A DNA stretch of 64,000 bases. Source: Granulicella sp. Lineage in GTDB: Bacteria; Acidobacteriota; Terriglobia; Terriglobales; Acidobacteriaceae. The stretch lies in NCBI GenBank assembly GCA_027339965.1, contig DAHWNL010000047.1, positions 1-64,000 of the forward strand, in the 5' to 3' direction. This document shows, piece by piece, positions 28,057 through 61,409 of the stretch. Below the pieces are notes generated by a model. It was given only the letters and a program-made list of their open reading frames with translations, ran no database searches and had not been told where the DNA came from. A program made the position numbers and the translations under genes. Position 1 is the stretch's first letter. Each line of letters begins with the position of its first letter.

Positions 28057-28195
28057 ATAGCTGCTCTCTACAGACAGAGCAGCGTCGATGTTCACCATCG
28101 ATTGGGAGCGCAGGCAAACGCAACCAAGGCAAAGCACGAAAGAAAAAGGCAACACACCCAGGGAACGCTCTTGAAGCGTTCCCTGATGTGTTTTT
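28057..28195 (+). ncRNA. Candidate sRNA (sRNA-A, about 140 nt)
   Basis: TTGACT-N17-TATACC upstream, two hairpins, an A-rich tract with three AGGCAA, an intrinsic terminator, and no plausible ORF. Confidence 0.6.
28159..28195 (+). terminator. Intrinsic terminator
   Basis: CAGGGAACGCT-CTTGA-AGCGTTCCCTG followed by ATGTGTTTTT. Confidence 0.8.
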
Positions 28196-28274
28196 AGCGC
28201 CTTCTCAAGTGTCGTGAGGAGGGGCGAATCGAGACGCCGAATTCCTTCTTGCCATCAAGCAGTATGCTGGACCC

Positions 28275-29003
28275 ATGACCAGAAGACGATGGATTGCCGA
28301 TACATGGACTGAGACCAGCGCGAGCTTGCGGGGAGAGCAGGCGGCGCATCTTGCGCGGGTCCTGCGGGCGCAGACGGGACAAGTATTTGACGTAGTGGCG
28401 AATGGATTCCTGCATCGCGCGGAGGTTATTTCCGCCGGTGAGAATGAGGTGGTATTTGCCCTGAAGGAGCAACTAGAGGCTGAGGTCTGTCTCCGAATCC
28501 ACCTTTTGATGGCCGTCTTCAAGTTCGATCATATGGAGTGGGGGATGGAAAAGGCTACCGAGCTGGGTGCAGCTCGCCTCTCTCCGGTGATCGCGCGAAG
28601 GACAGAGAAGCATCTGGCCCAGGCCGCCGCCAAGCGTGTAGAGCGCTGGAGAAGGATCGTACGGGAAGCTGCGCAACAGTCGCGGCGCAGCGATGTACCG
28701 GTGGTGGACGATCCCGTCGCGTTGAAGGCGGCGCTGGGTGGCGTGAGCGCGGAGACGAGATTTTTGCTGGCGGAGATCGAGCAGGAAAACTCCCTGCGCA
28801 ACGAGCTGGCCCGCGAGCGGCTGCGTGAGAGCCTTCCGGTAGCGCTGGCGATAGGGCCGGAAGGCGGATGGACGGCCGAGGAGATGGCGCTATTCCGTCA
28901 GAACGGGTGGAGGCCAGTGACGCTTGGACCCCGGATCCTGCGTGCGGAGACGGCAGCCATCGCCGGCCTGGCGGTCTGCGCGGCAATGTTGCAGGGGTCT
29001 TGA
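28275..29003 (+). CDS. rsmE: 16S rRNA m3U1498 methyltransferase
   Basis: HLARVLR, EKATELG, IGPEGG and LGPRILRAETA. Confidence 0.95.
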   Translation: MTRRRWIADTWTETSASLRGEQAAHLARVLRAQTGQVFDVVANGFLHRAEVISAGENEVVFALKEQLEAEVCLRIHLLMAVFKFDHMEWGMEKATELGAARLSPVIARRTEKHLAQAAAKRVERWRRIVREAAQQSRRSDVPVVDDPVALKAALGGVSAETRFLLAEIEQENSLRNELARERLRESLPVALAIGPEGGWTAEEMALFRQNGWRPVTLGPRILRAETAAIAGLAVCAAMLQGS

Positions 29004-29259
29004 TCTTTCCTGGCGAGGAGAAGAGCGATGCAAAGAATCTGTTTCGTGGCTGACGGTCTGTGGAGATTGCTGCTTTGCGGAGTTCCAAGCGGATGCATCT
29101 GGGCGTCGATTCAGCTCCAGAGGCTCAGGTTCTGAGACACCCCCGCCAGTTCGGCGGATCTGTTCTACCGTTCCGACGCTTGCGGCGCCTCGCGGAACTT
29201 CTCGGGGTGTTGCTTGCGAACTATAGCATTTTCAGTGTTGATGGGTGTTCCGAAGAGGG

Positions 29260-29299
29260 CTTCTATGGGCGTTTTCCTTGGGGAAAACGCCCATAGAAG
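29260..29299. terminator. 18-bp perfect hairpin between convergent rsmE and S1-paralog genes
   Basis: CTTCTATGGGCGTTTTCC-TTGG-GGAAAACGCCCATAGAAG. Confidence 0.6.
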
Positions 29300-29333
29300 T
29301 CGAGACATTGGATACTCCTGCACTGAAACTGCT

Positions 29334-31058
29334 TTAGTCGAGCTGCACCTCAATGGACTGGGACTCGATGTCCAGTTTCAGGATCCGAAAGCTGCGAATC
29401 TGTCCAGGGGCCAAAGGTTCAATCTTCGCCGGTAAGGCTGCGCTACCCTTCCATCGTGCGCTGAGCATCGAAGTTAGCTGTGAAAGATCGGCACCCGCGC
29501 TGCCGGAGTCCGCCGCCGGCGCAGGGCTGCGGCTAAGCAAACACGGGGCGCGAACCCCTTCTCCCAGCTCCACGATGACTGCTTCCGCGGTGTGTTCCGC
29601 ACTGGGAACGGAAACGACCCGTCCCGAAACGAGATCTCCTGGACGATGCTCTTGCAGATACTCAGAAAGTCCAGTGGGCGCGAGTTGCTTGATGCTCAGG
29701 CGAATCTGCCGTTTCTCAACGTCCAGGCCTGTGACCTCCGCCTTCACGGTTTCACCGATCCGCAGCACATCCTGGGGATGATGGATTCTGCGCTCCGCAC
29801 TGATCTCGCTGATGTGGAGGAGTCCTTCCACGCCTTCCGAAAGTTGAACAAATGCACCGAACTTCATCAGACGGGTCACCTGTCCCTGGACCACTGCGCC
29901 CACAGGGAACTTTTGCGGCACATCGTTCCATGGGTCGCCAAGGGCCTGCTTCAGCCCCAGAGAGATTCGCTTCTCCCCGCTGTTTACCGAAAGGATCATC
30001 ACCTCCACGTTATCCCCAGGTTTCAGTAGATCGCTCGGCTTGCGCACCTTCTTGACCCAGGACATCTCAGAGACATGAACAAGTCCCTCGATGCCCGGCT
30101 CCAGTTCCACGAACGCTCCGAAGTCCAGCAGACGCGTCACCGTGCCGGTAACACGCTGACCCGCCTGGTATCTCTCCGCCGCGCTAGTCCAGGGTTCCGG
30201 CTGGAGTTGTTTCAACCCCAGGGAGATGCGCCTTGTCTGCGGGTCGACGCTGAGAACCTTTAACTCGATGGATTGCCCCAGGCTCAAGAGATCCTCGGCC
30301 GAACTGACACGGCTCCATGCCATATCGCTGATGTGTAGCAGGCCGTCGATTCCGCCCAGGTCAATAAAAGCTCCGTAGGGCGCAAAGCTACGCACCGTGC
30401 CTTGCACGATAGCTCCTTCGCGGAGGGCGGCGACGCGGCTTTGTTGAAGAGCCAGGGCCACTTCCTCCATCACGGAGCGCCGGTCTACCACCACGTCCTC
30501 TTCCAGGCTGTCCAGTTTGGTGATCCGGCAGGTAATCTGCTGTCCCACCAGTTGCTCCATCTCCCCGGCATCTCTGGTTCCGCTGCGGGAAGCGGGGAGA
30601 AACGCTCGGACTCCGAGATCCACGGTGAGCCCACCCTTGACAACTCCTGTGACGGTGCCAACGACAGGAGTCTTCTGGGCAAAGGCCTGCTCCAGCGATT
30701 TCCAATCGGTGGGTTGGGTGACCCGCAGCAAGGAGAGTTCATAGTAGCCTTCTGGATTCCGCCCCGTGATGGAGACGGCAAGGGTGCTTCCTTGGCGCAG
30801 ATCTTCGGAGCGGTTCGCGCAGAGCTCCCTGGCAAGCACACCTTCGGTCTTGTATCCGATGTCGAGGTACACGAACTCTGCATCCATGGAGACGACCGTG
30901 CCCTGCAACTGCTTTCCATCTCCTTCACTGCGATGCGAATGCGTTTGTTCGAATTCGGAGAGTTGGTCAGCGAAGGAGACGGTGACTGGAGCCGGGGGCT
31001 GGGCAGCAGCGTCAGTGGCAGGGGCGGAGGCAGGAATGGGCTGTTCTGGCATCTTCAT
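29334..31058 (-). CDS. Ribosomal protein S1-like multi-S1-domain protein (probable paralog)
   Basis: Repeated YGAFIDLGGIDGLLHISDM, FGAFVELEPGIEGLVHVSEMSW and FGAFVQLSEGVEGLLHISEI, with a divergent C-terminus. Start may be 31127. Confidence 0.88.
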   Translation of the reverse strand: MKMPEQPIPASAPATDAAAQPPAPVTVSFADQLSEFEQTHSHRSEGDGKQLQGTVVSMDAEFVYLDIGYKTEGVLARELCANRSEDLRQGSTLAVSITGRNPEGYYELSLLRVTQPTDWKSLEQAFAQKTPVVGTVTGVVKGGLTVDLGVRAFLPASRSGTRDAGEMEQLVGQQITCRITKLDSLEEDVVVDRRSVMEEVALALQQSRVAALREGAIVQGTVRSFAPYGAFIDLGGIDGLLHISDMAWSRVSSAEDLLSLGQSIELKVLSVDPQTRRISLGLKQLQPEPWTSAAERYQAGQRVTGTVTRLLDFGAFVELEPGIEGLVHVSEMSWVKKVRKPSDLLKPGDNVEVMILSVNSGEKRISLGLKQALGDPWNDVPQKFPVGAVVQGQVTRLMKFGAFVQLSEGVEGLLHISEISAERRIHHPQDVLRIGETVKAEVTGLDVEKRQIRLSIKQLAPTGLSEYLQEHRPGDLVSGRVVSVPSAEHTAEAVIVELGEGVRAPCLLSRSPAPAADSGSAGADLSQLTSMLSARWKGSAALPAKIEPLAPGQIRSFRILKLDIESQSIEVQLD

Positions 31059-31069
31059 CGGCACTCTAT

Positions 31070-31109
31070 TTTGTCTCGAACCATCCGTGTTTGTCTCGAA
31101 CCATCCGTG
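31070..31109. repeat. Exact 20-nt tandem duplication
   Basis: TTTGTCTCGAACCATCCGTG twice (31070-31089, 31090-31109). Confidence 0.95.
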
Positions 31110-31136
31110 GTGGATTCCGGTCACCATCCGAATCCC

Positions 31137-34100
31137 CTATTGTTCCGGGGCGATTGCCTGATCGAGCTGCAGCTTGTGCTGCTCCTTCAGGTCAGCGGAG
31201 CGCAAAACCTCCAGGAAGCGATGCACCTGATATCCCGCGACTTTGGCGGCATATGCGAGGTTGGCGGCGATCTCGGTGATATGCTGGGCGTCTTTGACGT
31301 GTACCTGGGGCGCTCTGCCCATCTCGATGAGCGCCGGCAGGAGCAACCAGCATACGAAGCACTCAAAGCTCTCCTGGATAAAGTACTCGGGCTCAGTTGC
31401 GTCGCCATGGACTCCTGTTAGCCAGCGCGCATCGGCGTCGCTCCAGAACTCCTCCGAGCGTACCGCCGCCGAGCAAGAGCCGAATTGACTCATCAGCAGG
31501 AGCACGCGCACCAAAGCTGCTGCCCGCCAGGCCTGCTCGCCCTGCACTCCGATGGCAGAGAAGACCTCGGCGAAGACATGGCGCAGCCGAAGCGTGTCAT
31601 AGAGCGTCAATGCGGCGGCTGGAGAGGCCGAAAAACGCAGGACCAGCCAGGCCATGACCGGGCCCCAGGTCTTTGCCGATGGCGTGTGGATATCACTGCT
31701 GGGCAGTATGTTACGCGCTGCCGATTGAATCGTCTCGGGGTGCTTCAAAACCATCCAGGGCAGCCGAATGGCGGCGGCGGCTATCGCATTGGCGCCGCCT
31801 GCCGCGGAAGAATCGTCTGCAGTTACCCGGTCAATGGAGCACCAAGGCTGAAGCGTGGAAGGATCCGGCAGTCTCACCCCATCCAGCCGCGCCAGATTCT
31901 CCGCCTTCTCCAGGAACCGTTGCGCGCCCCGAATGAACTCGATGACACCCCCTTCCAGAGGCGGAAGAGCGGGGCCAACCTCCGGGCGTGCTGCCTTGAG
32001 GCTCTTTCCTCCGCTCTTCGTCCTTGCTCGCTTCGGCTCGGTGGGTGGAGAGATGCTCTGGGACTCAAGTTCGAGTTCCCGCGTCAGAGCCGTATAGGCG
32101 GCAATGACGAATCCTCGAATCGTCTCTTCATGGATGGTCCTGTGCAACGCATCCACCAGAGGTTGAAGCCGCAGTTGCGAAAGGGCCTCATCCAGGCTGT
32201 AAACGCCCGTTCCATGCAGGGCATCGCAGAGCCGATCCCAGGGATAAGCCTCTGAAGGCTGGAGATGTCGCCAATCCAGGAACACAGCATGTTGATAGCC
32301 GCGCAGATCCAGGGTCAGGCCGTGATCGCGAAAGTCGACGGCGCGGCGCAAAAACTCCAACCCCAGCGCGGAGTCCCGATAGGCGAGAATTGCGTTTTCC
32401 TCCCAGGGAAGGCGCAGGCCCTCAAAAAGACTCTTCTGGCGCAGAGTTCCACACTGCTTGTCCAGAAAGCCCACGGACATCTTGATGGTTCCCTGAGTCG
32501 ATCCGTAACGATTGTTGTACAAAATCAACGCTCGTTGATCATCGCACAGGTTGGAGTAAGCAAAGACGTTCTCGTCCACGGTGCCGTAGCCGGTCCAGAA
32601 GTCGTACAGGACGAAGTCCGCGCTTTCGGCAAACAGCCTGCGGTTTCTCAACAGTGGAGCGATCAGTTGCTGATGGCGCGCGATCAGTCCTTCATTCTGT
32701 TGTTCATCCAGGCGAGCTTGTTTGAAGTCCATGCCATAGCGCTCGGTGTAGCCCTCGATCTGCCCATGTCCAAACATCGGGAGCCCGGGAAGCGTGGCCA
32801 GGAGCACGCATACGCCAAAGTACTTGTCGCCCCACCCGAACTGATCGATCGCGGTGCGCTCGTCGGGATTGCTCATGAAGTTCACGTAGCGCTTCAGGAT
32901 ATCGGGGTCAAATTCGACGGTCTTTTTCAGATAAGATCTGTACTTTGCATTCTCTTCATCGCGAAGCATGTTCATGAAGGCGCTGTTATAGACGCGATGC
33001 ATTCCCAGGGTGCGGACGAAGTAACCCTCCAGCAGCCAGAAGGCTTCAGCCAGCAAAAGGGTTCCGGGAACCTCTGCCGCTACGCGATCGACCACCTCGC
33101 GCCAGAACTCATGCGGCATCAGCTCATCAAAGGTTTCCTGCGAAATGGCAGATTCGGCACGCGAGGGAATGGAGCCTCCGGCGCCGGGCAGGGGAAACCA
33201 GAGCCGCTGCACGTGACGCTTGGCCAGCACCATGGCGGCGTCGAAACGAATGATGGGAAATCTCCTCGCAACGTTCAGAATCACCTGGATGACGTGTTCG
33301 CGCACCTCGGCCCGGGAGTAGTCCAGTTGAGCGGTATCGTTCCAGGCGAACATGGTTCCATCATTGCCGTGGTAGATATAGCGGGTTGTTCCCTGACGAT
33401 AATGGTGCAGACGGAAGACGACCGCGGCGTCAGTCTGGTCGTAGTAGTGATCCTCGATCTTGATCTCGACGCGGCTGTCTGTGGAGAGATCGGGCCCATG
33501 GAAGTGGTAGGCGGGATAGGGGCTCTCCCAGCGCGACAGGAACCACTCGGGATGCTCGATGACCCAGGTAGAGTCAATGCCCATGTGATTGGGGACCATA
33601 TCGCTGGCCAGACGCAACCCCGCCATGCCTGCGCGATAGCGCAGGTTTTCGAGGGCCTCCTCGCCTCCCAGATCATGGGCGATGGAATAGTCCCGTAACG
33701 AGTACGCCGAGGCCACGGCATCGTGATTGCCTCGCAGGCGCTTGATCGTCTTAGACGCCCGGCTTCTTTCCCAGAGCCCAATCAACCACAGCCCGGTGAT
33801 GCCGCGCTCGGAGAGCAGCCGCAATTCCTCATCCGGAATCTGGTCCAGCCTGTGGATGTGGCGCTGGTACTTCTTGGAGAGCTGTTCCAGCCAGACGTAG
33901 GTGCTTTTAGCGATCAGCACGACGTTGGGCATCCAGGCCTGATCGGCGCTGAAGGCCTCATACTCGAATAGCGGAGCTGGCTGCCGAAGCCGCAGCGCGC
34001 TGTCCCAGCCCACATATTCGTCGCCGACGAATCCCTCATTGCCGCGGCCAGGAGGCGCATGGCGGTGCCAATCCGGGCCCAGGGGATGGAACTGCATCCA

Positions 34101-34883
34101 TATTGCCAGTTCCTCCTCACGCAGCACGTCGACAGCCAGGAGCACCCGCTTCAGGTCATCGCCCAGAATCTCGGCCCAGGCCCGGATGATGTAGTCCAGT
34201 TGCCCGGTTAATGAATCCGGAGAGGCCAGCATGGGAGCCCGGAGCGCATCGATAAGACTGCCGAGGCTGGGGGAGAGCTTGGGGCGAGAGCTGAAGAACT
34301 TGGGAATTTCCTGAGTTACTTGTCCATAGGAGGTCTTTTGCTGCAGGAGTTTGTCGCTGAAAAGACGCCGGAACGGCTTGAACGCCGGATTGTTGTTGGC
34401 GATCCACAACAGCAGTAGCTCTTCGAGCGCGATCTCCGAATTGGGCCGGCCTTCCGAGTTGCCGTTGAGCCACTGCCGCTCGGTGCGTTGGCCGCGGTAG
34501 ACATCCACGGTAGGGAACTGGCTTACGAACTGGAGCAACAGCCGATGGCTCGCTTTGGGCGTGATTTGCGCAGCGAGCCAGCGCAGCGCCTCAGCCATGA
34601 CCGCTGGATCCTGCTGTTGGCGATACCGCGCGACCAAGGCATGGCTCAGTTCGTCGATGATACCCATGGCAAAGAGCGCGCCGGCATGGAGGATTGGGGG
34701 CGAATTTGGAGGTTCGCCAGCCGCAGGGGTATCCGCCGGTTCCGGGTCACGCAGAGAGTTCAAACCTTCCGCGAGCTTGCGTGCAGCTGCGACGTTGGCA
34801 AAGACAATGTTGCCGGTAAAGCTGAACAGAACTTCCTCGATGTTCAGCCGTTCACGGATCGATCTTGAGATATGAAATTCCAT
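31137..34883 (-). CDS. Large alpha-amylase family (GH13) protein, 1248 aa
   Basis: DMVPNH, RFDAAM (nucleophile), LAEAFW (acid/base) and SNPDE. Confidence 0.88.
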   Translation of the reverse strand: MEFHISRSIRERLNIEEVLFSFTGNIVFANVAAARKLAEGLNSLRDPEPADTPAAGEPPNSPPILHAGALFAMGIIDELSHALVARYRQQQDPAVMAEALRWLAAQITPKASHRLLLQFVSQFPTVDVYRGQRTERQWLNGNSEGRPNSEIALEELLLLWIANNNPAFKPFRRLFSDKLLQQKTSYGQVTQEIPKFFSSRPKLSPSLGSLIDALRAPMLASPDSLTGQLDYIIRAWAEILGDDLKRVLLAVDVLREEELAIWMQFHPLGPDWHRHAPPGRGNEGFVGDEYVGWDSALRLRQPAPLFEYEAFSADQAWMPNVVLIAKSTYVWLEQLSKKYQRHIHRLDQIPDEELRLLSERGITGLWLIGLWERSRASKTIKRLRGNHDAVASAYSLRDYSIAHDLGGEEALENLRYRAGMAGLRLASDMVPNHMGIDSTWVIEHPEWFLSRWESPYPAYHFHGPDLSTDSRVEIKIEDHYYDQTDAAVVFRLHHYRQGTTRYIYHGNDGTMFAWNDTAQLDYSRAEVREHVIQVILNVARRFPIIRFDAAMVLAKRHVQRLWFPLPGAGGSIPSRAESAISQETFDELMPHEFWREVVDRVAAEVPGTLLLAEAFWLLEGYFVRTLGMHRVYNSAFMNMLRDEENAKYRSYLKKTVEFDPDILKRYVNFMSNPDERTAIDQFGWGDKYFGVCVLLATLPGLPMFGHGQIEGYTERYGMDFKQARLDEQQNEGLIARHQQLIAPLLRNRRLFAESADFVLYDFWTGYGTVDENVFAYSNLCDDQRALILYNNRYGSTQGTIKMSVGFLDKQCGTLRQKSLFEGLRLPWEENAILAYRDSALGLEFLRRAVDFRDHGLTLDLRGYQHAVFLDWRHLQPSEAYPWDRLCDALHGTGVYSLDEALSQLRLQPLVDALHRTIHEETIRGFVIAAYTALTRELELESQSISPPTEPKRARTKSGGKSLKAARPEVGPALPPLEGGVIEFIRGAQRFLEKAENLARLDGVRLPDPSTLQPWCSIDRVTADDSSAAGGANAIAAAAIRLPWMVLKHPETIQSAARNILPSSDIHTPSAKTWGPVMAWLVLRFSASPAAALTLYDTLRLRHVFAEVFSAIGVQGEQAWRAAALVRVLLLMSQFGSCSAAVRSEEFWSDADARWLTGVHGDATEPEYFIQESFECFVCWLLLPALIEMGRAPQVHVKDAQHITEIAANLAYAAKVAGYQVHRFLEVLRSADLKEQHKLQLDQAIAPEQ

Positions 34884-35052
34884 CCAGCAATAAACTCTCC
34901 TGCAGTATCTTGCCCGCTGTCGCGCTTCATTTGTTTCTTCACCGATGTTACTCTGCGCGGCCGGCTACCAGGGTTGTATCCTGCCTTTGTACAATCTATA
35001 ACGCCGGGGGAGGCAGCCCGAGACTGCTGCAACAGCTCTTCACGGAGGGAAC

Positions 35053-37911
35053 GTGGCTTATACGATCGATTCGCGTCCGCAAGGCTTTGACTGGCGGCCG
35101 CGGCACAACTGGCGGCGTCCGCTGCTAATCTTTGCCGGCGTTTTCCTTGTGGGGCTCATCTTCAGCTCCAGTTCGCTCCTCTCTTCCTGGGTCGATCTTC
35201 TCTGGTTCGATTCCCTCGGCTATGGGGAAGTTTATTGGAGGATGATTGGTCTCCAGGCGGGGATCTTTGCCGGAGTCGCTCTGATTACCTTTGCGATTCT
35301 CTTTCTGGCTTTCGCCGCGCTCCTCCGGATGCACCGCACGGGCCTGCCAAGGTCGCAGGCCATCCAGCTCTCGGGCCAGACGTTTCATCTCTCGGTCGAG
35401 CCGGTTCTTCGCATTCTTTCCCTGGTGACGTCGATTCTGGTGGCTCTCTTCTCCGGCGTCACCCTGATGGCGGACTGGCCGGCCCTGGCGCTCTTCCGGT
35501 ATGCCCAACGGACAGCCGAGGGCCTTACTGACCCCATCTTTGGCAAGCCGTTGAGCTTTTATCTTTTTACTCTTCCGGCCTGGAACCTGCTCAATGACTG
35601 GCTACTCACCCTGGCGCTAGCCATCTGCGCGGCCGCTGCCGTCTATTTTGTAATCACCGGCAGCACGCTTGCGCTGCGCGCGGAGGAGGGTGGCGGGAGC
35701 AGGATCGACAACCGCGGGAGCTCCTGGCGCGGCCTCTCGCTGAGCATCTCGTTTCTGCTTCTGGTGGTGGCCATGATGGTCTTTGTGAGCCGTTACCAGC
35801 TTTTGCTGGAGCACCATACCATCTTCGATGGCATCAGCTATACGGATGCGCACGTTTCCGTGCCCGGCCTGCTTGTGGTCTGTGTGGCGCTGGTGGTGGG
35901 AGCGGTCCTGGCGGCAGCCAACGCCGTTCGCCGCCCCCGCGCCCGTAACCTCGGGCTGGCGATAGCCCCTGCGGGCGTCAGCTACATGGTTCTGGGGCTG
36001 ATCGGCTGGTACGTGTCGAGCTTTGTGGTCAAGCCCAATGAGCTCGATCGCGAGACTCCCTATATCTCCCAGAATATCCAGACCACTCGCCGGGCCTTCG
36101 GGCTGGATCGCTTTTTTCAGCAGGAGTTTCCGGCTGAGACCACCATTGAGGCGGCCGACCCAGACCACAACCAGCAGACGCTTGAGAACATTCGACTGTG
36201 GGACTGGCATGCCCTGCAGGATACCCTGCGCCAGGTTCAGGAGATCCGCACCTACTACGACTTTCCCGATATTGATATCGATCGCTACAACCTGAACGGA
36301 ACCACCCGAGAGGTGATGCTGGCCGCCCGGGAGCTGAATGTGGACAGGCTCCCGGTCAGTAGCCACAACTGGATCAATGAGCGCCTGACCTATACGCATG
36401 GCTACGGCGTCACGATGAATACGGTGAATGGATTTACGCCGGAGGGTCTCCCCGAGTTTCTGCTGAGTAACATGCCGGTGCAGAGCACGGTCCCCGGGCT
36501 AAGCGTCAGCCGCCCCGAGATTTACTTCGGCGAACTGACCAAGACGGACGTCTATGTCAAAACCCGCCAGCAGGAGTTTGACTATCCCCAGGGCCAACGG
36601 AACAACTTTACTTCCTATCGGGGCAATGGCGGCATTGTCCTGGGCGGCTTTTTGCGCCGGCTTCTCATTTCGGTCTACGAAGGCGATTTGGGCAAGCTAC
36701 CCTTCAGTGACGACATCAAGACGGATAGCCGGCTTTTGATGCGCCGCAGCATCGCGGACCGGGTTGCGGCCCTGGCTCCCTTCCTCACCTTTGACGGAGA
36801 TCCCTACCTGGTGGTGGGTGACCAGGGAAGATTGTTCTGGATCATTGACGCTTACACTACCTCCGATTCCTATCCGGAGTCGACTCACTATGCGCTGGAT
36901 GGCGACTCGGTGAATTACATCCGGAACAGCGTCAAGGCAGTGATCGATGCCTATAACGGCACGACAACATTCTATGTGTTTGATTCCTCCGACCCGATTC
37001 TGGGTGCTTACCGCCGCGTCTTCCCCAGGCTCTTTCGGGAGGCTGCGTCGATGCCAGCGGATCTCAGCCGCCACGTCCGCTACCCCGAGGAGATATTCAA
37101 CTTACAGTCAGAGGTCTATGGCCTTTATCACATGACCGACCCGGAGGTCTTCTTCAATCGGGAGGACTTGTGGACGGTGGCCACGGAGAACAGCCTGGAC
37201 GCGGACGGAAACCAGGCGGTTCTGCCGGTACAGCCAAACTTTGTTCTGATGAAACTCCCAGGCGAAACCTCGGCCGAGTTTGTGGAGATACTACCCTTCA
37301 CGCCGGCCAACAGAAATAATTTGATCGGCTGGATCGCCGGCCGGTGCGATGGAGCGCACTACGGCACAGGGGTGGTCTATGACTTTCCCAAGACCCGGCT
37401 GGTGGATGGGCCGCAGCAGATCGAGGCCCGCATTGACCAGAATGCGCAGCTTTCTGGCCAACTCACCCTGTGGAACCAGCAGGGTTCGCATGTTTTGCGC
37501 GGCAGCCTGCTGGTGATCCCCTCCGGCAAGGCGCTGCTCTACGCCGAACCCATTTATCTGCAGGCGCAAGAGAGCCCCATGCCGGAGCTGCGCCTGGTGG
37601 TGCTGGCGCTGCAGGATCGACTGGCCTACGGACCCAGCTTTTCTTCGGCTTTAGCGGCGCTCTTTGCGGGACAGCCGTCTTCGTTGAGCGGGGCCGAGAC
37701 AGAGCCGGCTGCCACGACCTCTTCGAAGTTGCCCGGGAGCACCTCGTCCGCGTTGCCGCCTGAGGAGACGACTAACGACCTTATTCGTGAGGCCGGCCAG
37801 GACTTCTCCGAGTACCAGCGATTGACCGCAGCCGGAAAGCTGGCCGCGGCCGGAGAAAAACTCGATGCCCTCAAACAGGTTCTGGAGCAGCTCAACGCTC
37901 GCGCCAAATGA
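35053..37911 (+). CDS. UPF0182 family membrane protein
   Basis: DLLWFDSLGY, DPIFG, NIRLWD, YTHGYG, NYIRNSVK, LLYAEPIY. Confidence 0.92.
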   Translation: MAYTIDSRPQGFDWRPRHNWRRPLLIFAGVFLVGLIFSSSSLLSSWVDLLWFDSLGYGEVYWRMIGLQAGIFAGVALITFAILFLAFAALLRMHRTGLPRSQAIQLSGQTFHLSVEPVLRILSLVTSILVALFSGVTLMADWPALALFRYAQRTAEGLTDPIFGKPLSFYLFTLPAWNLLNDWLLTLALAICAAAAVYFVITGSTLALRAEEGGGSRIDNRGSSWRGLSLSISFLLLVVAMMVFVSRYQLLLEHHTIFDGISYTDAHVSVPGLLVVCVALVVGAVLAAANAVRRPRARNLGLAIAPAGVSYMVLGLIGWYVSSFVVKPNELDRETPYISQNIQTTRRAFGLDRFFQQEFPAETTIEAADPDHNQQTLENIRLWDWHALQDTLRQVQEIRTYYDFPDIDIDRYNLNGTTREVMLAARELNVDRLPVSSHNWINERLTYTHGYGVTMNTVNGFTPEGLPEFLLSNMPVQSTVPGLSVSRPEIYFGELTKTDVYVKTRQQEFDYPQGQRNNFTSYRGNGGIVLGGFLRRLLISVYEGDLGKLPFSDDIKTDSRLLMRRSIADRVAALAPFLTFDGDPYLVVGDQGRLFWIIDAYTTSDSYPESTHYALDGDSVNYIRNSVKAVIDAYNGTTTFYVFDSSDPILGAYRRVFPRLFREAASMPADLSRHVRYPEEIFNLQSEVYGLYHMTDPEVFFNREDLWTVATENSLDADGNQAVLPVQPNFVLMKLPGETSAEFVEILPFTPANRNNLIGWIAGRCDGAHYGTGVVYDFPKTRLVDGPQQIEARIDQNAQLSGQLTLWNQQGSHVLRGSLLVIPSGKALLYAEPIYLQAQESPMPELRLVVLALQDRLAYGPSFSSALAALFAGQPSSLSGAETEPAATTSSKLPGSTSSALPPEETTNDLIREAGQDFSEYQRLTAAGKLAAAGEKLDALKQVLEQLNARAK

Positions 37912-39420: not shown

Positions 39421-39422
39421 GG

Positions 39423-39438
39423 TGTGATTGAGATCACA
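39423..39438. promoter_or_regulatory. CRP/FNR-family binding box
   Basis: TGTGA-TTGAGA-TCACA, an exact CRP consensus. Confidence 0.7.
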
Positions 39439-53286: not shown

Positions 53287-53703
53287 AGCCGTCTTGCGCT
53301 GGATGAGACCCCCGCAAGTGGTCGATGGTGCGCCAAACACCGGCGATGGAGAACCGTGTGAGGGCGGCGACGCCTCGAATGTCCATCTTGCCGGGCGCGG
53401 ATGCCGGGGAGCGTTTGCGTCGTGGTTTCAAGAAAAGAATCCTGCAGGCTCATGATGCCATCCGCATACTCGCGGTAGCCTGCGAAGGCGAGATGGAAAG
53501 AGCAGAAGCGCGGAAGGACTTCCGGCGCGGAGCAAACCGGGCTTGTCGAGGATCTTGAAGATGGGTGAGGCCGGATTTGATGAACCCCGTGGCGGGAATT
53601 ATGTCCGGGAAACGACTACGCAGGCCGCCTTCTCTCTGCCGACAGTGCTGGCGGCTTGGCTGCAGGGAGGCGGAAGCTTCGAGAACCGCAGGATGAGGAT
53701 GAT

Positions 53704-55284
53704 ATGGCGATCGTGGCGGGTGTTGATTTTGGAACGCTGAGTGTACGTGTGACGCTGCTGGATAGCGAGCGGGGAAGACTGGGCACCGCCTCATCTGGCT
53801 ATGTCCTGCAGCGCAGCCCGGAGGATCCCGATCTGGCGACCCAGAAGCATGAGGATCACATGCGTGCCATGGTGGCGGCCGTGCGGGAGGTGGTGCGGCA
53901 GAGCGGTGTGAAGGCGGGAGAGATTGCGGCGCTGGCCTTGGATACGACTGGATCCAGCGTGATTCCTGTTGATGCACACCTGCAACCTCTGGATGACTAC
54001 ATGCTGTGGTGTGATCACCGCGCACATCGTGAGGCCAGGGAGATCACCGAGCTGGCGCACGCCATTGGACTGGAGGCGATTGAGTGGTGTGGCGGAGTGT
54101 ACTCCCATGAGTGGGGATTTGCGAAGCTGCTGTACTGGCTGCGCTATCACCCCGAGAAGCGGGCTCTCTTGGGGACCGCTCTTGAGCACTGCGACATGGT
54201 GGCGGCGACGCTGGCCGGGGTGACCGATGCGAAGAAGGCACCGCGCAGTGTTTGCGCCATGGGGCATAAGTGGATGTGGAATCCGCGCTGGGGAGGGCTG
54301 CCGCCCCAGGAGTTTCTGTCCCGGCTGGATCCGTTGCTGGACGGAGTACGAGAGAAGCTCGACGGAGTGTACGGACGCTCGGACGCATTGGCGGGCAAGC
54401 TGAGCCAGAGATGGGCGGATGCCATGGGACTCAGGGCCGGGATTCCGATCCCAGTGGGAGCCTTTGATGCCCACTGGGATGCGATCGGCGCCGGATGTCG
54501 GGAAGGCGATGTCGTGAACGTGGTGGGAACATCAACCTGCATCATCGCGATGAGCAGCCAGACGCGACTGGTGCCCGGCGTCTGCGGTGTGGTGCCAGGG
54601 AGCGTGCATCCGGCCTATACCGGAATTGAGGCAGGGTTATCGGCGACGGGGGATATCTTTGAGGCCATTGCGCGGCGCGCAGGTACAAATGTGCAGACGC
54701 TGAGCGAGGGGCTGGATGCCTACCGGCCAGGGCAGACCGGACTGATGCGATTGAGCTGGGACAATGGAGACCGGACCGTGCTGGTGAATCCGGAGCTGGG
54801 TGGCATTACGCTGGGATGGAATCTATTGCATTGCGCCAAGGACGAGCTTTTTGCCGCGATTGAGGGAACCGCGTTCCATACCCGCATCATTCTGGAGCGG
54901 ATGGCGGAGTATGGCGTGCCGGTGCATCGAGTGATCCATGCGGGAGGGGTTCCGCAGAACAATGCGGTTTTGAACCAGGTATATGCGAACGTATTGGGCA
55001 AGACGGTGCTCGTGCCCGATGGCGTGCCGACGAGTTTGGGCTCAGGGATCTTCGCGTTGCTGGCTGCGGGGGCCTTTACCAGCATCGAGCAGGCGCAGGC
55101 AAAGATGTGTCTTCCCTTCCGATCGTTCCATCCTCAGCCTGAGGCGGTAAACCGGTATGAGCCGTTGTTTGCGCTTTACAAAAAGATGTACTGTGCCTTT
55201 GGCGCCCCGCAGAGCTCTCCGGTTGCGCTGGGAGATGTGTTGCCCGAGCTGCGCCGGAGCGCGGCCGAGGTTCGCGGCGCCTGA
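53704..55284 (+). CDS. araB: Ribulokinase (FGGY family)
   Basis: GVDFGTLSVR, DTTGSS, LWCDH, FDAH, VGTSTC, WDNGDR. Confidence 0.88.
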   Translation: MAIVAGVDFGTLSVRVTLLDSERGRLGTASSGYVLQRSPEDPDLATQKHEDHMRAMVAAVREVVRQSGVKAGEIAALALDTTGSSVIPVDAHLQPLDDYMLWCDHRAHREAREITELAHAIGLEAIEWCGGVYSHEWGFAKLLYWLRYHPEKRALLGTALEHCDMVAATLAGVTDAKKAPRSVCAMGHKWMWNPRWGGLPPQEFLSRLDPLLDGVREKLDGVYGRSDALAGKLSQRWADAMGLRAGIPIPVGAFDAHWDAIGAGCREGDVVNVVGTSTCIIAMSSQTRLVPGVCGVVPGSVHPAYTGIEAGLSATGDIFEAIARRAGTNVQTLSEGLDAYRPGQTGLMRLSWDNGDRTVLVNPELGGITLGWNLLHCAKDELFAAIEGTAFHTRIILERMAEYGVPVHRVIHAGGVPQNNAVLNQVYANVLGKTVLVPDGVPTSLGSGIFALLAAGAFTSIEQAQAKMCLPFRSFHPQPEAVNRYEPLFALYKKMYCAFGAPQSSPVALGDVLPELRRSAAEVRGA

Positions 55285-55394
55285 GGGAGCGTAGGGTTCC
55301 GTAGCCTCGCAGCCTTCGCAGGAGCGCCTTGCGAGGTAAGGCTGAGCGCTGGGAAGAGGGTTGGGATTCAGGTTGAAGAGTCAAGGAGCTACCG

Positions 55395-56099
55395 ATGCTT
55401 TTAAGGGCGTTGCGAGAAGAGGTATTGCGTGCGAATCTGGAACTGGCGCGCAGAGGGTTGGTGCTGTACACGTTTGGGAATGCTTCGGCAGTGGATCGCA
55501 GGCAGGGACTGGTGGTGATCAAGCCCTCGGGTGTGGAATATGACGTGCTGCGCGCTGAAGACATGGTGGTGACCGATCTGGAAGGAAAGATCGTGGAGGG
55601 CAGACTGAAGCCCTCCTCGGATCTGGATACCCACACGCTGCTGTATCGCGAGTTCATCGGTATTGGCGCAGTGGCGCATACGCACTCGGAGTATGCCACC
55701 AGCTTTGCGCAGGCAGGGATGTCGATTCCGGCGCTTGGAACGACGCACGCAGATTACTTTCACGGACCGGTTCCCGTGACTTTGCCGCTGAGCGATGAGG
55801 CGATCCATGGAAGGTATGTTCATGAGACGGGGATGGCGATTGTCGCGAGGTTCAAGGCGCAGCCAGCGAAGGTCGATCCAATGGCGGTTCCTGCCTGCCT
55901 GGTGGCGGGACATGCTCCGTTTGTCTGGGGCAAGGATGCTGCGGAGGCGGCGCACCACGCGGTGGTGTTGGAGGCCGTGGCCAGAATAGCCTATCGTACC
56001 CTAACCCTGAAGGCGGGCGCTGAAGAGGTTTCGCAGGCGCTGCTGGACAGACATTACCGGCGCAAGCATGGAGCCGCCGCCACTTATGGACAGGGCTAG
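55395..56099 (+). CDS. araD: L-ribulose-5-phosphate 4-epimerase
   Basis: FGNAS, IKPSGV, PSSD, HTHS, GTTHADYF, RKHG..YGQ. Confidence 0.95.
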   Translation: MLLRALREEVLRANLELARRGLVLYTFGNASAVDRRQGLVVIKPSGVEYDVLRAEDMVVTDLEGKIVEGRLKPSSDLDTHTLLYREFIGIGAVAHTHSEYATSFAQAGMSIPALGTTHADYFHGPVPVTLPLSDEAIHGRYVHETGMAIVARFKAQPAKVDPMAVPACLVAGHAPFVWGKDAAEAAHHAVVLEAVARIAYRTLTLKAGAEEVSQALLDRHYRRKHGAAATYGQG

Positions 56100-56190
56100 G
56101 AGTTATAGGGAAGAATGAGGGCGTTGCAATTGAACGAATTCGATGCCTTCCTGTGAACGGTGGATGGGTGCCTGGATGATGGGAGAAGCG

Positions 56191-57414
56191 ATGAAAAAGG
56201 GATGGACGGCGGCGCTGCTGGTGATGCTCTTGTGCCCTGCGGCCTGGGGGGCTCGGAGCGAGGGTTCCCAGAGCCAGGCGGCCTCTAAGAAAACAACCTC
56301 TGCCATGCGGCCCGGCGCTTCGGTGCGCCAAACTGTCTCTGTTCAAGAGAAGGCATGGGGGACGGCGGACGATGGCAAGCCCGTGAAGATCTTTACCATC
56401 AGCGATGGCATGTTGACGGTACGGATCACGACCTTCGGGGCAAGAATCGTCAGCATCGAGACGCCGGACCGCCAGGGCAAGATGGCCGATGTGGTGCTGG
56501 GATATGACACCCTCGAGCAGTATGAGAAGAGCACAAAGAGCTACTTCGGCGCCGTTGTAGGGCGGTATGGCAATCGAATCGCCAAAGGAACGTTCGCAAT
56601 CGATGGAAGAACCTACCACGTGCCAATCAACAACAACGGCAATGCGTTGCATGGAGGACCGAAGGGCTTTAGCACCAAGGTGTGGACGGGCAATGTACTT
56701 CCGGATGGCGTGGAGATGACGCTGGTGAGTCCGGATGGAGATATGGGATTTCCCGGCACGCTGACGGTGCATGTGCGTTATAGCCTGGAGGGTCACTCGC
56801 TGCGGATTCTCTATAGCGCGACAACGACGAAGCCCACGGTGGTGAACTTGACCAACCACAGTTACTTCAATCTGGCCGGAGATGGAAGAGGCAATATCCT
56901 GAATGAGGTATTGATGATTCCAGCCGACCGCTATACGCCGGTGGATGGGACACAGATTCCAACCGGAGAGCTGGCGACGGTGAAGGGGACGCCCTTCGAC
57001 TTCCGAAAGCCGACTGCGATTGGAGCGCGCATCGCAGAGGACAACGCCCAGTTGGAGGTTGGCGGTGGGTATGACCAGAACTTTGTGTTGGATGGCAAGC
57101 CCGGCAGCCTGCATCTGGCGGCCAAGGTCTATGATCCGCAGAGCGGGAGGACGTTGACGGTGATGACCACCCAGCCGGGAGTGCAGTTCTACTCCGGAAA
57201 CTTTTTGGATGGAACCGAGCATGGGAAGTACGGCGTGACCTATGAAAAGCACTCTGGCTTTTGCCTGGAGACGCAGCACTTTCCTGATTCGCCCAATGAA
57301 CCAAAGTTTCCTTCTACCCTGCTGCGACCGGGTCAGACGATGCGCTCTGAGACCGTATTTGTGTTGGGTGTGATGCATGCAAAGAGTTCGGGCGCGGGGG
57401 TGCCAAACTCCTAG
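56191..57414 (+). CDS. galM: Aldose 1-epimerase (mutarotase) with signal peptide
   Basis: GRYGNRI, LHGG, NLTNHSYFNL, GYDQNF, CLETQHFPDSPN. Confidence 0.92.
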   Translation: MKKGWTAALLVMLLCPAAWGARSEGSQSQAASKKTTSAMRPGASVRQTVSVQEKAWGTADDGKPVKIFTISDGMLTVRITTFGARIVSIETPDRQGKMADVVLGYDTLEQYEKSTKSYFGAVVGRYGNRIAKGTFAIDGRTYHVPINNNGNALHGGPKGFSTKVWTGNVLPDGVEMTLVSPDGDMGFPGTLTVHVRYSLEGHSLRILYSATTTKPTVVNLTNHSYFNLAGDGRGNILNEVLMIPADRYTPVDGTQIPTGELATVKGTPFDFRKPTAIGARIAEDNAQLEVGGGYDQNFVLDGKPGSLHLAAKVYDPQSGRTLTVMTTQPGVQFYSGNFLDGTEHGKYGVTYEKHSGFCLETQHFPDSPNEPKFPSTLLRPGQTMRSETVFVLGVMHAKSSGAGVPNS

Positions 57415-57795
57415 ACCTGCTGGTGGGTCGGCTCCTGGTCAAAATATGGACCAAGGCGGTTCTGGATCTCATGTCAGATTTGCTGCAAGATCCTGAGTTC
57501 GGCGGCTCCATCTCGAAGTTCGGCCTTAATACGAGCGAGGATTTCGTTTTCCACGCCGTTTCCAAACGGCTTGAACGCTCATGGCTCTGCTCATCCATGT
57601 TCAGGCCACGCGCCCTGCTTCCTCAACAAACGCCCCTTGCTGCGAGAAGGCGTGAGCGGTCTGGCTCGCCGGTATCCTGTACCCTCACTTTGCGAGCGCA
57701 CTGCAACCTGGTGGATCGATAATGACCACAGGGTGCCCGCGTTCCGCACTCTGGCAGCTCAATGACAGAAAGCATAGAAAAGGAAGAGAGCCAAC

Positions 57796-58842
57796 ATGGC
57801 AGCAAGGGTACTGCGCGGGGCGGTTGTCGGAGCATCGCAATTGATGGGCAAGGAGCTTGCCGAAGAGCTGAGCGCGGCATCGTCGGCATCCTGGGACGTT
57901 CTCCTGCTGGACGAACAAGTCTCTCAGGGGACGATGACTTCCCTGGGAGATGAGGCTGTCGTGATACAGCCCGTTTCCGCGGAGGCGTTTGCAGGTCTGG
58001 ATGCCGTCTTCTTTGCCGGCGAGGCTTCAACGGTGATGCAGTTCTGGAAGGCGGCTTACCTTTCGGGAGCGGCCGTCGTGGACCTAACCGGGGCTTTGGA
58101 GGGGCAGCCGCACGTTCTGGTGCGTTCGCCGCTGGTGGAACTCTCCGCAGGGAGTCTTGCAGAGCCGTCTACCGCGGGTTCCAAACCGGACGGAATGACC
58201 TTGGCCGAGATCTCGGCCCATCCGGTGTCCGTGCTGTTGGCTCTGGTCGAGGTCAGGCTGGGGCCTTTAGGGTTCTCCCGCATGGTGGCGACGGTGCTCC
58301 AGCCGGCCTCGGAGATGGGCAACGAGGGTGTGGATGAGATGCATCAGCAGACCGTGAGTCTGCTCTCCTTCAAGCCGTTGCGGCGGGAGATCTACGATGC
58401 GCAGATAGCCTTCAATCTGGTGGCTTCGCTGGGGGAGGGTGCCCGGACGGATCTTGCCCGAACCACGGAGAAAGTTCAGCGCCACATCGGATTGCTGGCT
58501 GGAGAAGAAGCGGTTCGGTCCACTCGGCTGCAGATGCTACAGGCTCCGGTCTTTCACGGCTACACGGCCTCAGTGTGGGTGGAGATGTCGCAGCGACTCT
58601 CCACCGAGACGATTCGCGGGGCGCTGGTGAAAGACGGCCAGATGGTGGAGGAGGACTCTGCCGGCAATCAGATGGCGGTGGGCCGCGGCGAGGTGCTCTT
58701 CCGTTTGGGCAGCGAGCAGGCGTCGGAGACCGACAGTTTCTGGCTATGGATCGCCGCCGACAATCTGCGTCTGGCTGCTCGCAACGCCGTCGCCTGCGCC
58801 CTGGAACTGATCGAGCAGAAGCCCCTCCGTGGACTTCGATAG
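57796..58842 (+). CDS. Aspartate-semialdehyde dehydrogenase-like (Usg-like) protein, probably catalytically inactive
   Basis: Asd-fold motifs (QIAFN, PVFHG, WIAADNLR..ARNAV) are present, but the catalytic Cys and His are absent. Confidence 0.8.
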   Translation: MAARVLRGAVVGASQLMGKELAEELSAASSASWDVLLLDEQVSQGTMTSLGDEAVVIQPVSAEAFAGLDAVFFAGEASTVMQFWKAAYLSGAAVVDLTGALEGQPHVLVRSPLVELSAGSLAEPSTAGSKPDGMTLAEISAHPVSVLLALVEVRLGPLGFSRMVATVLQPASEMGNEGVDEMHQQTVSLLSFKPLRREIYDAQIAFNLVASLGEGARTDLARTTEKVQRHIGLLAGEEAVRSTRLQMLQAPVFHGYTASVWVEMSQRLSTETIRGALVKDGQMVEEDSAGNQMAVGRGEVLFRLGSEQASETDSFWLWIAADNLRLAARNAVACALELIEQKPLRGLR

Positions 58843-59552
58843 GGGCAGGCGGCAGCGAGACTCCTCGACGGGTCCGGGCCTTGAATTCGCGCGGCGAAGG
58901 CTTGGTGCTTGGATCCTTGGTGCATGGATCGCTCCATCCTGGCGTTTCCGTCAGGGGGGCCGCCAGGATGGAGCGATGGGTCAACTCGCACCAGCAACGT
59001 CCGTGAAGCAGAGCAGGTTGACACGAAGCCCAAAGCGCCGCCCTTGAGGCTGTGTTCCGGGAGCTATTTCCTTTGAGTTATGCTTGCGCGCCCCTCGGCC
59101 ACCACTCTCTTAGATTCCGTATCCGCCGGGAAGGCGTTGCGGTACAGGCTAGAGTCCTGGGCCTTCGAAAAGATGGTGCGCTTTACCAGGTGGAGGGCGT
59201 GCTGTCGGCGCTTTGCATCCACAAGAGCCAACGGACAGCTCAGCAACTTGGTCAGTGGCCGGCCGCGATTTTGGCCTTTTTCGCCGCCCAGCTCGAACAA
59301 GCCAAGCCCGCAACGGCTTGGAACTGCGAGCAGCGCAGCTAGGGATGGACTAGGGATGGAACCCACCGCATCCGCACAAGGCCGGTTTCTACGTTGTCGG
59401 CCGGTGCTCTCGAAGCCCTCTTTCCGCCAAATTCTGAGCCATGCTCACCCCAATAGCTTCGCTTTCAGGCTCGCGATGTCCCGGTGTTGCAGCGTCATGC
59501 GAGCTGGTGGCTCACGCTTGCCTGGGGCCGGTTGGTGTAGTCTGTGCGCTGT

Positions 59553-60851
59553 ATGCGTTCGGATTTGAGGGTAGGGCGAGCGGTGAGGATTGAAGTGCTG
59601 CGGGCGGTGCTCATCGGTGTGGCCGGCTTCACGGGAGTGGCATGGGGAATTGGCTCTGCGGCACCGGCCCAAATCAAGATTACAGAGCCAGAGGCCGCTC
59701 TGCTGCCCGCCCGGTTTGGCGGCTGGGCGCGGACCTCCGGTCCGGCCGCGGTGTCGCCTTCTCCTTTGGCATCTCTGCGTCCAGAGGCGCTCTCCGAGTG
59801 CGGAGAACGGCGGTGGAAGGTGGCCGATTATGCGCGCGGAGGGAACACCGTGCAGGTGGAGGCCCTGGAGTTTGGAGATCGAACCGGGGCCTATAGCGCG
59901 TTTACGCTGCTGGAGCAGGTGCAACAGGCCGCGGCGGGCAGTTCACCGGGCGAAGAGCAAGGGGCCGGGTCGGGAGCGGGAGAGGCAGCGGTGGCTTCGG
60001 GGTGGTGGCTAACCGGGGTGACGGTGGGCAAGGGGTTGGAGGCCTACCAGACGGCGGGAGCCGGTGCGCAGGGAGGAGCGGTGGTGCTCTCCATGGTGGG
60101 CAAGACGGTGCTTCTGGCGAGGTTTCGCCAAGGGACGCCCGAAGCAGATGCGCAGGCTCTAACCCCTCTGCTGGAGGCGATGCCGAAGGTATTTGGCAGC
60201 GCGGCGGTTGCGCCCGTCCTGCCGACGCTGCCGCCGGCCAGGGGGCTGGTTGCGGGCAGCTTGCGCTATGCGTTGGGACCGGTGAGCTATGCGGCCGCAG
60301 GAGGTGTGCTTCCGCCTGGATTGCTGGATTGGACGATGGAGCCGGAGGTCGTGACAGCCAGATATGACGACGCGCGCGGCAAGGAGATACTAACCCTGAT
60401 CCTCTACCCAACGCCCACCATCGCGCGGAGGGCGGCCAAGGTGATTGCGTCCCGGATGCCAAGGCCAAAGACGAATACCCGGCTGCAGCAGCAGGGGATG
60501 CTGGTGGCTCTGGCGACCGGAAGCTTCTCCGGGGCAGAGGCTGAGCAGATGGTGAAGGGAGTTCACCTGAGTGAGTTGGCCTTCAACCAGGATGCCCATC
60601 CTCCTTTCAAGGTAGTGGCGGCGCAGGCGTTTACGCTGCTGGAGAATATCGCGATTCTCTCTGGAGTGCTGGGAGCGGCGGCGGTGCTGCTGGGGCTGTT
60701 CCTGGGGTTTGGGCGCGCGGGGTATAGGGTGCTGCGAGGCAAGCCGCCGGCGATGGAGGTGGAGTTTCTGAGCCTGCACCTGGCTCCGCAGAATAAGCCG
60801 GCGATCTTTACGGGGCCACAGAGCGCGGAGGACGAGAAGAAGGGGGCTTGA
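59553..60851 (+). CDS. Exported, membrane-anchored hypothetical protein (DUF6599-like)
   Basis: Signal-like N-terminus, FGDRTGAYSAFT, LILYPTP, and a C-terminal TM followed by RGKP..EFLSLHL. Confidence 0.7.
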   Translation: MRSDLRVGRAVRIEVLRAVLIGVAGFTGVAWGIGSAAPAQIKITEPEAALLPARFGGWARTSGPAAVSPSPLASLRPEALSECGERRWKVADYARGGNTVQVEALEFGDRTGAYSAFTLLEQVQQAAAGSSPGEEQGAGSGAGEAAVASGWWLTGVTVGKGLEAYQTAGAGAQGGAVVLSMVGKTVLLARFRQGTPEADAQALTPLLEAMPKVFGSAAVAPVLPTLPPARGLVAGSLRYALGPVSYAAAGGVLPPGLLDWTMEPEVVTARYDDARGKEILTLILYPTPTIARRAAKVIASRMPRPKTNTRLQQQGMLVALATGSFSGAEAEQMVKGVHLSELAFNQDAHPPFKVVAAQAFTLLENIAILSGVLGAAAVLLGLFLGFGRAGYRVLRGKPPAMEVEFLSLHLAPQNKPAIFTGPQSAEDEKKGA

Positions 60852-61294
60852 GACGGGACGCGAGGTTGAACTGCCAGGCCCGCTTCCGCTTGAGGTAGAA
60901 ACTTCGATGATCCGTCCTACCCAAATCTCAGGGCTTGAGCGTAGCCGTGAGCTGACGATCTTTTCCGCTTTGCGCCCCGGGCTCGTTTGGCTGGGTGTCC
61001 ATGGGAGCCGGCTTTGAGAACCCGGAAGGAGAATATAAGGCGAATATTGGCAAGACGGTCCGCTCTTCTGGGTCCGGAGACGGTGCGGGAGTATGAATGT
61101 CAGGCCGACGAACGGATCTCGCGGGTTGCGTTTCCGGGCCGGCAGACAGTAGCGGGTGAGTCGGCGGAGGGTTCATGGGTACGGGAAGGCGATGCGGAGA
61201 GGAGCCGAAGAAACCCAGAGAAAACCGCTGCGGATGGTAGAAAAGCATGTAAATCATTGATTTTGCGATAGATGAGAAAAGATGGAAAACTTTC

Positions 61295-61323
61295 TTGACA
61301 GGGCTGAGGGTCGAACATAGTCT
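61295..61323 (+). promoter_or_regulatory. Strong sigma-70 promoter
   Basis: TTGACA-N17-TAGTCT with an A-rich upstream region. Confidence 0.75.
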
Positions 61324-61329
61324 TGCACC

Positions 61330-61409
61330 AGAGAGTTCCGATGGCTTTGCCTCCGTTGGAGCTGCCTCCCATAGTAAAAAGGGTCGCCCTGTTGCCGGGC
61401 GGCCCTTTT
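61330..61409 (+). ncRNA. Candidate sRNA (sRNA-B, about 80 nt) with anti-SD motifs
   Basis: Promoter, 11-bp hairpin with CTTTGCCT loop, single-stranded GCCTCCCA, terminator at 61377-61409. Confidence 0.7.

Follow-up and report, generated by a model that had tools for sequence, protein, structure and literature searches.

Two predicted short intergenic RNA genes, here termed A and B, lie about 33 kb apart in a 64,000-nucleotide (nt) stretch of a Granulicella sp. genome (GenBank assembly GCA_027339965.1, contig DAHWNL010000047.1, positions 1 to 64,000; hereafter the window), each in single copy, and parts of their sequences are complementary. The question raised by this locus is whether the 2 RNAs pair and, if so, which of them acts on the other. 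RNA A (28058-28195, + strand, approximately 138 nt) is placed between a thiolase gene and rsmE, and RNA B (61330-61410, + strand, approximately 80 nt), a predicted trans-acting small RNA (sRNA), is located between a DUF6599 gene and tRNA-Thr. An earlier reading of the sequence (the original prediction) took both for candidate sRNAs and A for a multi-site decoy or sponge of B, or the 2 for regulators of each other. We conclude that A and B are a real, uncatalogued, co-evolving RNA pair. Conservation, intermolecular covariation and co-loss lend strong support to base-pairing between them, and that they pair at all we regard as highly probable. A could not be kept as an ordinary sRNA, since relatives carry an open reading frame (ORF) in it; judged from these relatives, A descends from an mRNA that coded for a peptide, and the ribosome-binding site of that mRNA was the ancestral target of B.

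The strings named for A (28103-28135) and B (61344-61371) were found at those positions on the + strand, and RNAduplex of the 2 segments returned the 23 collinear Watson-Crick pairs that had been claimed, in the same register (6+4+4+9; -34.4 kcal/mol). Cofolding of full-length A with full-length B retained this register, with a net binding of about -13 kcal/mol. The former ribosome-binding site of A, UGGGAG-C-GCAG (28103-28113, +), which is homologous to AGGGAGAAUAG of the coding forms, pairs with the B linker seed CUGCCUCCCA (61362-61371, +), which reads CUAUUCUCCCU in most of the family. CAAC of A (28121-28124) pairs with the GUUG stem strand of B, and AGGCAAAGC of A (28127-28135, +) is a 9-bp match to the B hairpin loop (61344-61352). 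Folding and alignment place hairpin 1 of B on the + strand, with its stem at 61335-61344/61353-61362 and loop CUUUGCCU at 61345-61352. The 2 further AGGCAA copies that had been described in A are present as well, at 28112-28117 (inside the internal loop) and 28147-28152. A possible third contact joins GGCAACA of A (28148-28154, +; invariant in 26/26) to the terminator loop UGUUGCC of B (61390-61396, invariant in the genus); A copies bearing GGCAACA had a B with the UGUUGCC loop in 47/49 cases, compared to 27/72 for copies lacking it, a contrast that is confounded by clade.

The exposure claimed for the seeds of B held for the hairpin loop (mean unpaired probability 0.87) and in part for the linker (0.5-0.6), but not for the GUUG block, which sits in the stem of B (0.0), so strand invasion would be needed there. 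Likewise, the pairing region of A is not wholly unstructured, as UGGGAG was just 0.35 unpaired. Shuffled controls, proposed with the original prediction as a test, were mixed: the observed energy was reached by 20/2000 shuffles of whole A and by 7/5000 of the 5' part of B, but by 1104/5000 when the A core was shuffled and paired with full B. When the genome was scanned for sites of B (13,403 seeded windows, de-duplicated sites), A ranked 270th by raw duplex energy; accessibility rescoring of the best 1500 brought it to first among trans sites, narrowly (-19.5 vs. -19.3 kcal/mol). The single-genome chance results are thus mixed, and energy alone would not settle the pairing. Chance is removed because A and B covary across genomes.

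In 64 of the 102 genomes with both RNAs, AGGGAGAAUAG of A and the linker CUAUUCUCCCU of B form a perfect 11-bp duplex. Variant pairs keep pairing: G064 and G166 carry a double change (A-U to G-C), G147, G067 and G187 retain complementarity, and the whole of genus g1 has a variant that still pairs, UGGGAG-C-GCAG of A with CUGCCUCCCA of B. In a second family (f2) and in other orders, B was sought by synteny alone, downstream of DUF6599, and was recovered in 12/18 f2 genomes and in 16/20 class-level genomes of other orders that have A; the genomes in which it was missed (6/18 and 4/20) had no DUF6599 match, a contig end or no recognizable promoter. By eye, the linkers so found were complementary to the A site of the same genome, up to 15-17 bp in G302, G309 and G354. 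Cognate pairs bound at -13.4 kcal/mol compared to -8.4 kcal/mol for permuted pairs (0/200000 permutations) in a set of 31, and at -15.05 compared to -9.12 kcal/mol (0/200000) with 1 pair per family (n = 10); both sets were hand-picked from 149 after the sequences had been seen, and kin among them are not independent, which counts against the weight of the test. The 31 were selected to span each family and variant, and the G277 window uses a downstream ATG. G021 has a change on both RNAs, and its A binds its own B best (-16.2 vs. -15.0 and -12.3); this is partial support, as the B of G021 binds the standard A no worse. In f2, orthologous A bound B more strongly than did a paralogue that has a standard Shine-Dalgarno site in 3/3 genomes, though the margin was just 0.7-4.1 kcal/mol. 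Paired changes were thereby traced over 10 families; a check of homologues for covariation and co-occurrence had been proposed with the original prediction.

Among 36 same-genus genomes, BLAST found A in 25 and B in 24, with 1 B match weak and non-orthologous; 23 had both RNAs, 11 had neither, none had B only and 2 had A only, both of them draft assemblies from which the locus of B could not be recovered. The paired core of A was 0.988 identical, with 28/33 positions invariant in 26 genomes, and identity in its flanks was 0.71 in the 5' hairpins (28058-28102) and 0.58 in the spacer. Column identity within the genus was 95% for B and 70% for A. In the alignment of B, every cell (100%) of both helices kept its pairing, and 3 pairs showed double changes. 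Covariance and profile models matched B in 146/150 and A in 148/150 family genomes, 2 of the A matches being weak; the unpublished genomes G062 and G081 are counted in these family tallies only. Homologues of A were present in 18/18 f2 genomes and in 62/121 genomes across the class, and DUF6599 was near B in 71/74 loci. One B-like hairpin with a terminator (L264, G032:C7:35187-35263) was rejected as an orthologue of B because its promoter and seed differ; it may be a terminator that arose by chance or else a distant paralogue. A pattern for genus-type B matched 51 stretches, 14 of them titled Granulicella, 34 Acidobacteriaceae or higher Acidobacterial ranks, and 3 otherwise. The 3 records titled outside Acidobacteria (L407, L425 and L398) probably reflect naming or binning differences.

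Outside the genus, A has the same promoter and terminator, and AGGGAGAAUAG is followed by an ORF such as MATKKAAKK...KKK. The 102 genomes with both RNAs comprised 75 with coding A and 27 with non-coding A. The coding forms specify 12-32 amino acids (aa), of which 53% are Lys and 30% Ala, with an in-frame stop in 75/75. In the window, ATGGCAACC is replaced by ACGCAACC (28118-28125, +), so the start codon is gone in the alignment, and same-genus copies have frame-shifting indels. None of 9 peptides sought by exact sequence was present in the protein collection (0/9), and 1 of 7 matched the Pfam family HC2 below threshold (E=0.0014; 19 bits compared to a cut-off of 40). One 32-aa peptide, looked up in the Atlas, was present there as a sequence with unnamed neighbors. 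Composition alone suggests that the peptide may have a histone-like, nucleic-acid-binding role. Genomes of f2 carry the Lys/Ala mini-gene a second time (L294, L296, L299, L301, L303, L305, L307 and L309), there with a standard AAGGAGG site, and G186 (L311) also has a second copy. Peptides of families f9, f11 and f12 (L331, L334 and L336-L339) start with MKCA or MAKCA and have a conserved Cys. In genomes that have neither A nor B (L231-L234; G026, G011 and G018), longer proteins begin with a similar KKAAKK stretch, and 1 such protein is encoded directly after what we take to be the end of a dnaJ-like gene.

Loss of the frame was not confined to the genus of the window, as ORF-less A was also found in 10/10 g55 and 4/13 g58 genomes examined. 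ORF-less forms fell into 3 groups with coding forms between them in a DUF6599 tree of 73 genomes, and 1 coding genome fell inside the g58 ORF-less group. On this comparison, the ORF has been lost in at least 3 lineages. A perfect match to the B loop, AGGCAAAG, was present in 35/39 ORF-less copies compared to 3/43 coding copies with the same B loop, and in coding copies Lys-Ala dicodons were written as AAGGCA in 70/118 cases where B has a UUGCCU loop compared to 11/59 otherwise; both contrasts are confounded by clade.

The pair has also been lost as a whole. A was not found in G018 (a complete genome), G033, G011 and G023, and B was cleanly missing from their DUF6599-tRNA-Thr interval; G026 had no match to A or B. 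These 5 genomes are 1 clade. The complete genome G245 is an independent joint loss, with B cleanly missing and A not found. G129 (L355) retains, downstream of DUF6599, a remnant of B with the promoter and the loop CCUUGCCU, its linker seed lost, and has just a weak match to A, which hints at another partner for the B loop.

The reading that we favor is that B would repress the peptide mRNA and that in the genus, where the start codon and frame were lost, A is a predicted non-coding decoy of B; we place this slightly above an even chance. Both RNAs would be transcribed from their own conserved promoters. The B linker would nucleate on GGGAG of A and the B loop on AGGCAAAGC; hairpin 1 would then open and the GUUG/CAAC block would form, probably on Hfq. 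For the coding forms, the duplex would cover the Shine-Dalgarno site, spacer and AUG, and translation would be blocked. For the non-coding forms, the complex would sequester or co-degrade B and free other mRNAs with GGAGGCA-type sites, which would match the 2 GCCUCC seeds of B. ORF-less A is still under strong selection and so needs an output; because every invariant single-stranded part of A has its complement in B, titration of B is the simplest one. Evenly balanced, in our view, is the broader proposal of a class-wide Acidobacterial module of 1 sRNA and one 12-32-aa Lys/Ala mini-gene in one-to-one co-evolution, in which the target would have gained sRNA sites by synonymous codons and at least 3 lineages would then have dropped the frame to leave a pure decoy.

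The sponge claim therefore survives as the best reading for the genus, with the reservations that the search gave no other strong target of B and that the direction could be reversed. Several results weigh against the reading as a whole. A scan of 742 seeded start regions, drawn from 3478 genes that had been called crudely, gave no strong mRNA target for B (best -16.7). The shuffle of the A core against full B was not significant, and in the reverse scan B ranked just 355/700 as a partner of A. In the set of 31 pairs, G264 was a poor cognate pair (rank 21/31), and the window's own site ranked 4 and 24 of 31 in the test with 35-nt windows. Whole-RNA binding in the genus (-13.8) was not stronger than that of coding forms (-16.6), with other ORF-less forms at -18.2. 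The tree from which repeated loss is read is a quick tree of a single gene. B vanishes along with A, as it also would if it had no further function, and the complete genome G230 keeps a coding A without B; a decay of the G230 site after the loss of B was considered and is unsupported (-12.9 vs. -13.6). A search of RNA runs for A returned small shares only, and 4 runs each gave a relative's contig over 28016-28136 and 126-171 nt further upstream through the promoter. Because these contigs run through the A promoter, DNA carry-over or read-through is possible, and they are no evidence either way on expression. A 10-nt match to the B loop, GGAGGCAAAG, is present in the start regions of 4 genes, which are candidate B targets: G000:C56:3373-4422 (-), C33:10609-11349 (+), C76:11522-11989 (+) and C70:93219-94442 (-).

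The alternative that survives best, although we consider it unlikely, reverses the direction, with A as the active RNA, pairing with other RNAs via its purine-rich core, and B as its dedicated antagonist, a role that B would already have had for the mRNA. Across the class the linker that tracks A is the sole constant part of B, the loop varying widely. B is lost together with A, and many genomic sites are stronger binders of A than B is. Absence of the ORF from some homologues of a dual-function RNA also has a precedent in SgrS/SgrT (PMC12612679). However, no invariant single-stranded part of A lacks complementarity to B, A persists without B in G230, and within the genus it is B, not A, that is better conserved.

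Improbable, in our assessment, is a relic, either decaying or held by mutual dependence, in which each RNA of an ORF-less pair is kept only to neutralize the other, in the manner of an RNA toxin-antitoxin, until both are deleted. This would be in keeping with the nesting of 2 of the 3 joint-loss groups among ORF-less lineages and with the lack of any B-only genome among the complete genomes seen, and the anti-Shine-Dalgarno seeds of B could be harmful if unopposed. In contrast, a relic does not readily explain a core invariant at 28/33 positions over 26 genomes with substantially different DUF6599 proteins, or promoters and terminators that are kept with compensatory changes; furthermore, mobile addiction modules differ from these 2 loci, which are distant from each other and present once each. 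A type I toxin-antitoxin, with a small hydrophobic toxin and an antisense RNA beside or overlapping it, was rejected, as Lys makes up 53% of the peptide, 33 kb separate the loci in the window and complete G230 has A without B.

Slightly less probable again is that A mainly titrates a protein, for example one of the Hfq family through its A-rich AAG/GGCAA repeats, with B masking these motifs. The GGCAA repeats do lie in an unstructured A-rich region, 3 Hfq-family matches exceed the cut-off in the source genome (G000:C70, C27 and C17), and Hfq decoys of the CrcZ type are described in PMC13501541. Yet GGCAA, at about 3 per A RNA, follows the loop sequence of B, as expected for RNA pairing (2.8 vs. 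1.1 among coding RNAs), and no CsrA match was found in the source genome, which is 98.9% complete. A protein sponge of the CsrB/RsmZ type was rejected on the same absence and because the repeats are GGCAA and not GGA loops. Finally, we regard it as very improbable that the complementarity arose by chance or reflects generic anti-Shine-Dalgarno pairing, or that A serves rsmE as an attenuator leader. In favor of this alternative, the raw energy is unremarkable, B also binds the standard Shine-Dalgarno site of the f2 paralogue to some extent (-6.9 to -12.6, compared to -10.1 to -13.3 for the orthologue), and in most loci rsmE is preceded by a Lys-rich ORF and then a terminator. Against it, the pairing reaches well past the GGAG core and covaries in 10 families, and the covariation test already largely refutes it. 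A leader-peptide attenuator is rejected because ORF-less copies such as window A are unable to attenuate by translation, 2 A loci have no rsmE nearby and rsmE has its own -10-like TAnnnT box 5-9 nt ahead of its start in 39/58 loci, including 2 genomes without A.

Alphaproteobacterial AbcR1/2 and cuckoo RNAs are anti-Shine-Dalgarno sRNAs with the C/U-rich seeds CCUCC and CUCCC. B resembles them in having C/U-rich seeds in a hairpin loop and a linker, followed by an intrinsic terminator; unlike them, it has no Rfam match, and its seed tracks 1 gene and not the generic Shine-Dalgarno site. Sponges that derive from mRNA include the chbBC trap of ChiX, SroC of GcvB and QrrX of Qrr, as described in PMC13501541. 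As in those systems, whose sponges come from an mRNA or are stand-alone transcripts, an RNA here would pair with a regulatory sRNA at its seed. In contrast to these parts of still-coding mRNAs, as that text presents them, a whole target gene has apparently lost its ORF here, at least 3 times, and the sponge site of A is an old ribosome-binding site. Chlamydia IhtA is a lineage-conserved trans sRNA that represses histone-like hctA at its initiation region, according to PMC4355289. B is similarly a predicted trans sRNA, conserved, on the initiation region of a small basic protein. As stated there, IhtA places a 7-nt loop over the AUG with no Shine-Dalgarno binding, whereas the main seed of B would cover the Shine-Dalgarno site and spacer over 9-17 bp; the peptide, unlike HctA as portrayed there, is just 12-32 aa, its histone-like function is only suggested, and no homology was found. 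PMC12612679 further describes homologues of SgrS in which the SgrT ORF is missing and pairing of FnrS near the azuC ribosome-binding site. Coding A is like SgrS/SgrT and AzuCR, so described, in being a short transcript with a small ORF that is absent in some homologues, and in the pairing of an sRNA near its ribosome-binding site. It differs in that A and B match one-to-one and co-evolve across the class, with B the sole pairing output seen for A.

Neither A nor B reached a gathering threshold in Rfam 15, including Acido-1 and Acido-Lenti-1, and among 19 homologue loci scanned with Rfam only a tRNA matched. Neither RNA belongs to an Rfam family, the Acidobacterial motifs of PMC2864571 included. 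Literature searches, whose coverage left out most subscription journals and the supplements of PMC2864571, where Acidobacterial motifs beyond Rfam could be listed, found no paper on the A-B pair, and no sRNA-target study for the phylum Acidobacteriota was found in the literature searched. The statement in the original prediction that no such pair was known in this lineage agrees with both the Rfam and the literature searches.

The origin of sRNAs and sponges is called poorly understood in bioRxiv 10.64898/2026.08.28.747715. If the proposal of a class-wide module is true, the locus would be a natural, repeated record of how the target of an sRNA turns into its sponge, and an unannotated basic micropeptide would be controlled by an sRNA dedicated to it. 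Because coding, non-coding and lost states occur among relatives, and the records include cultured Granulicella strains, the step from mRNA to decoy is directly testable. The intermolecular covariation over 10 families is also a clean benchmark for target prediction, and the comparison brings to light a conserved basic micropeptide whose exact sequence is absent from the protein collection.

Both RNAs have the layout of independent transcription units. The predicted promoter of A (+), with the start site placed from the sequence, has a -35 box TTGACT (28024-28029), a 17-nt spacer and a -10 box TATACC (28047-28052); both boxes are kept among homologues, and the spacer is variable. That of B (+) has TTGACA (61295-61300), a 17-nt spacer and TAGTCT (61318-61323), boxes that are conserved in homologues. 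A scan with a strict promoter consensus called neither. The 2 hairpins at the 5' end of A (28060-28102, +) are variable in sequence with compensatory changes, and the pairs of its intrinsic terminator (28159-28195, +) are altered on both sides. The terminator of B spans 61381-61409 (+), and with the conserved -35 and -10 boxes it marks B as a stand-alone unit by sequence. On the + strand, the folds of A (z -5.2) and B (z -4.2) each beat all 200 shuffles. B is non-coding: homologues do not keep the ATG within hairpin 1, and indels occur in the A-run. The 2 models searched found no paralogue of A or B in the source genome.

Other features of the window were recorded in passing. Next to A, rsmE seems leaderless, with TATGCT 6 nt ahead of its ATG (28263-28275, +). 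Near B, an IS3-type integrase ORF (rve, HTH_21; 61843-63116, -) lies directly upstream of a STAS (anti-anti-sigma-like) gene beside tRNA-Thr. The window also contains a signal recognition particle RNA (14765-14863, +) and tRNAs at 20187-20268 (-) and 61591-61663 (+).

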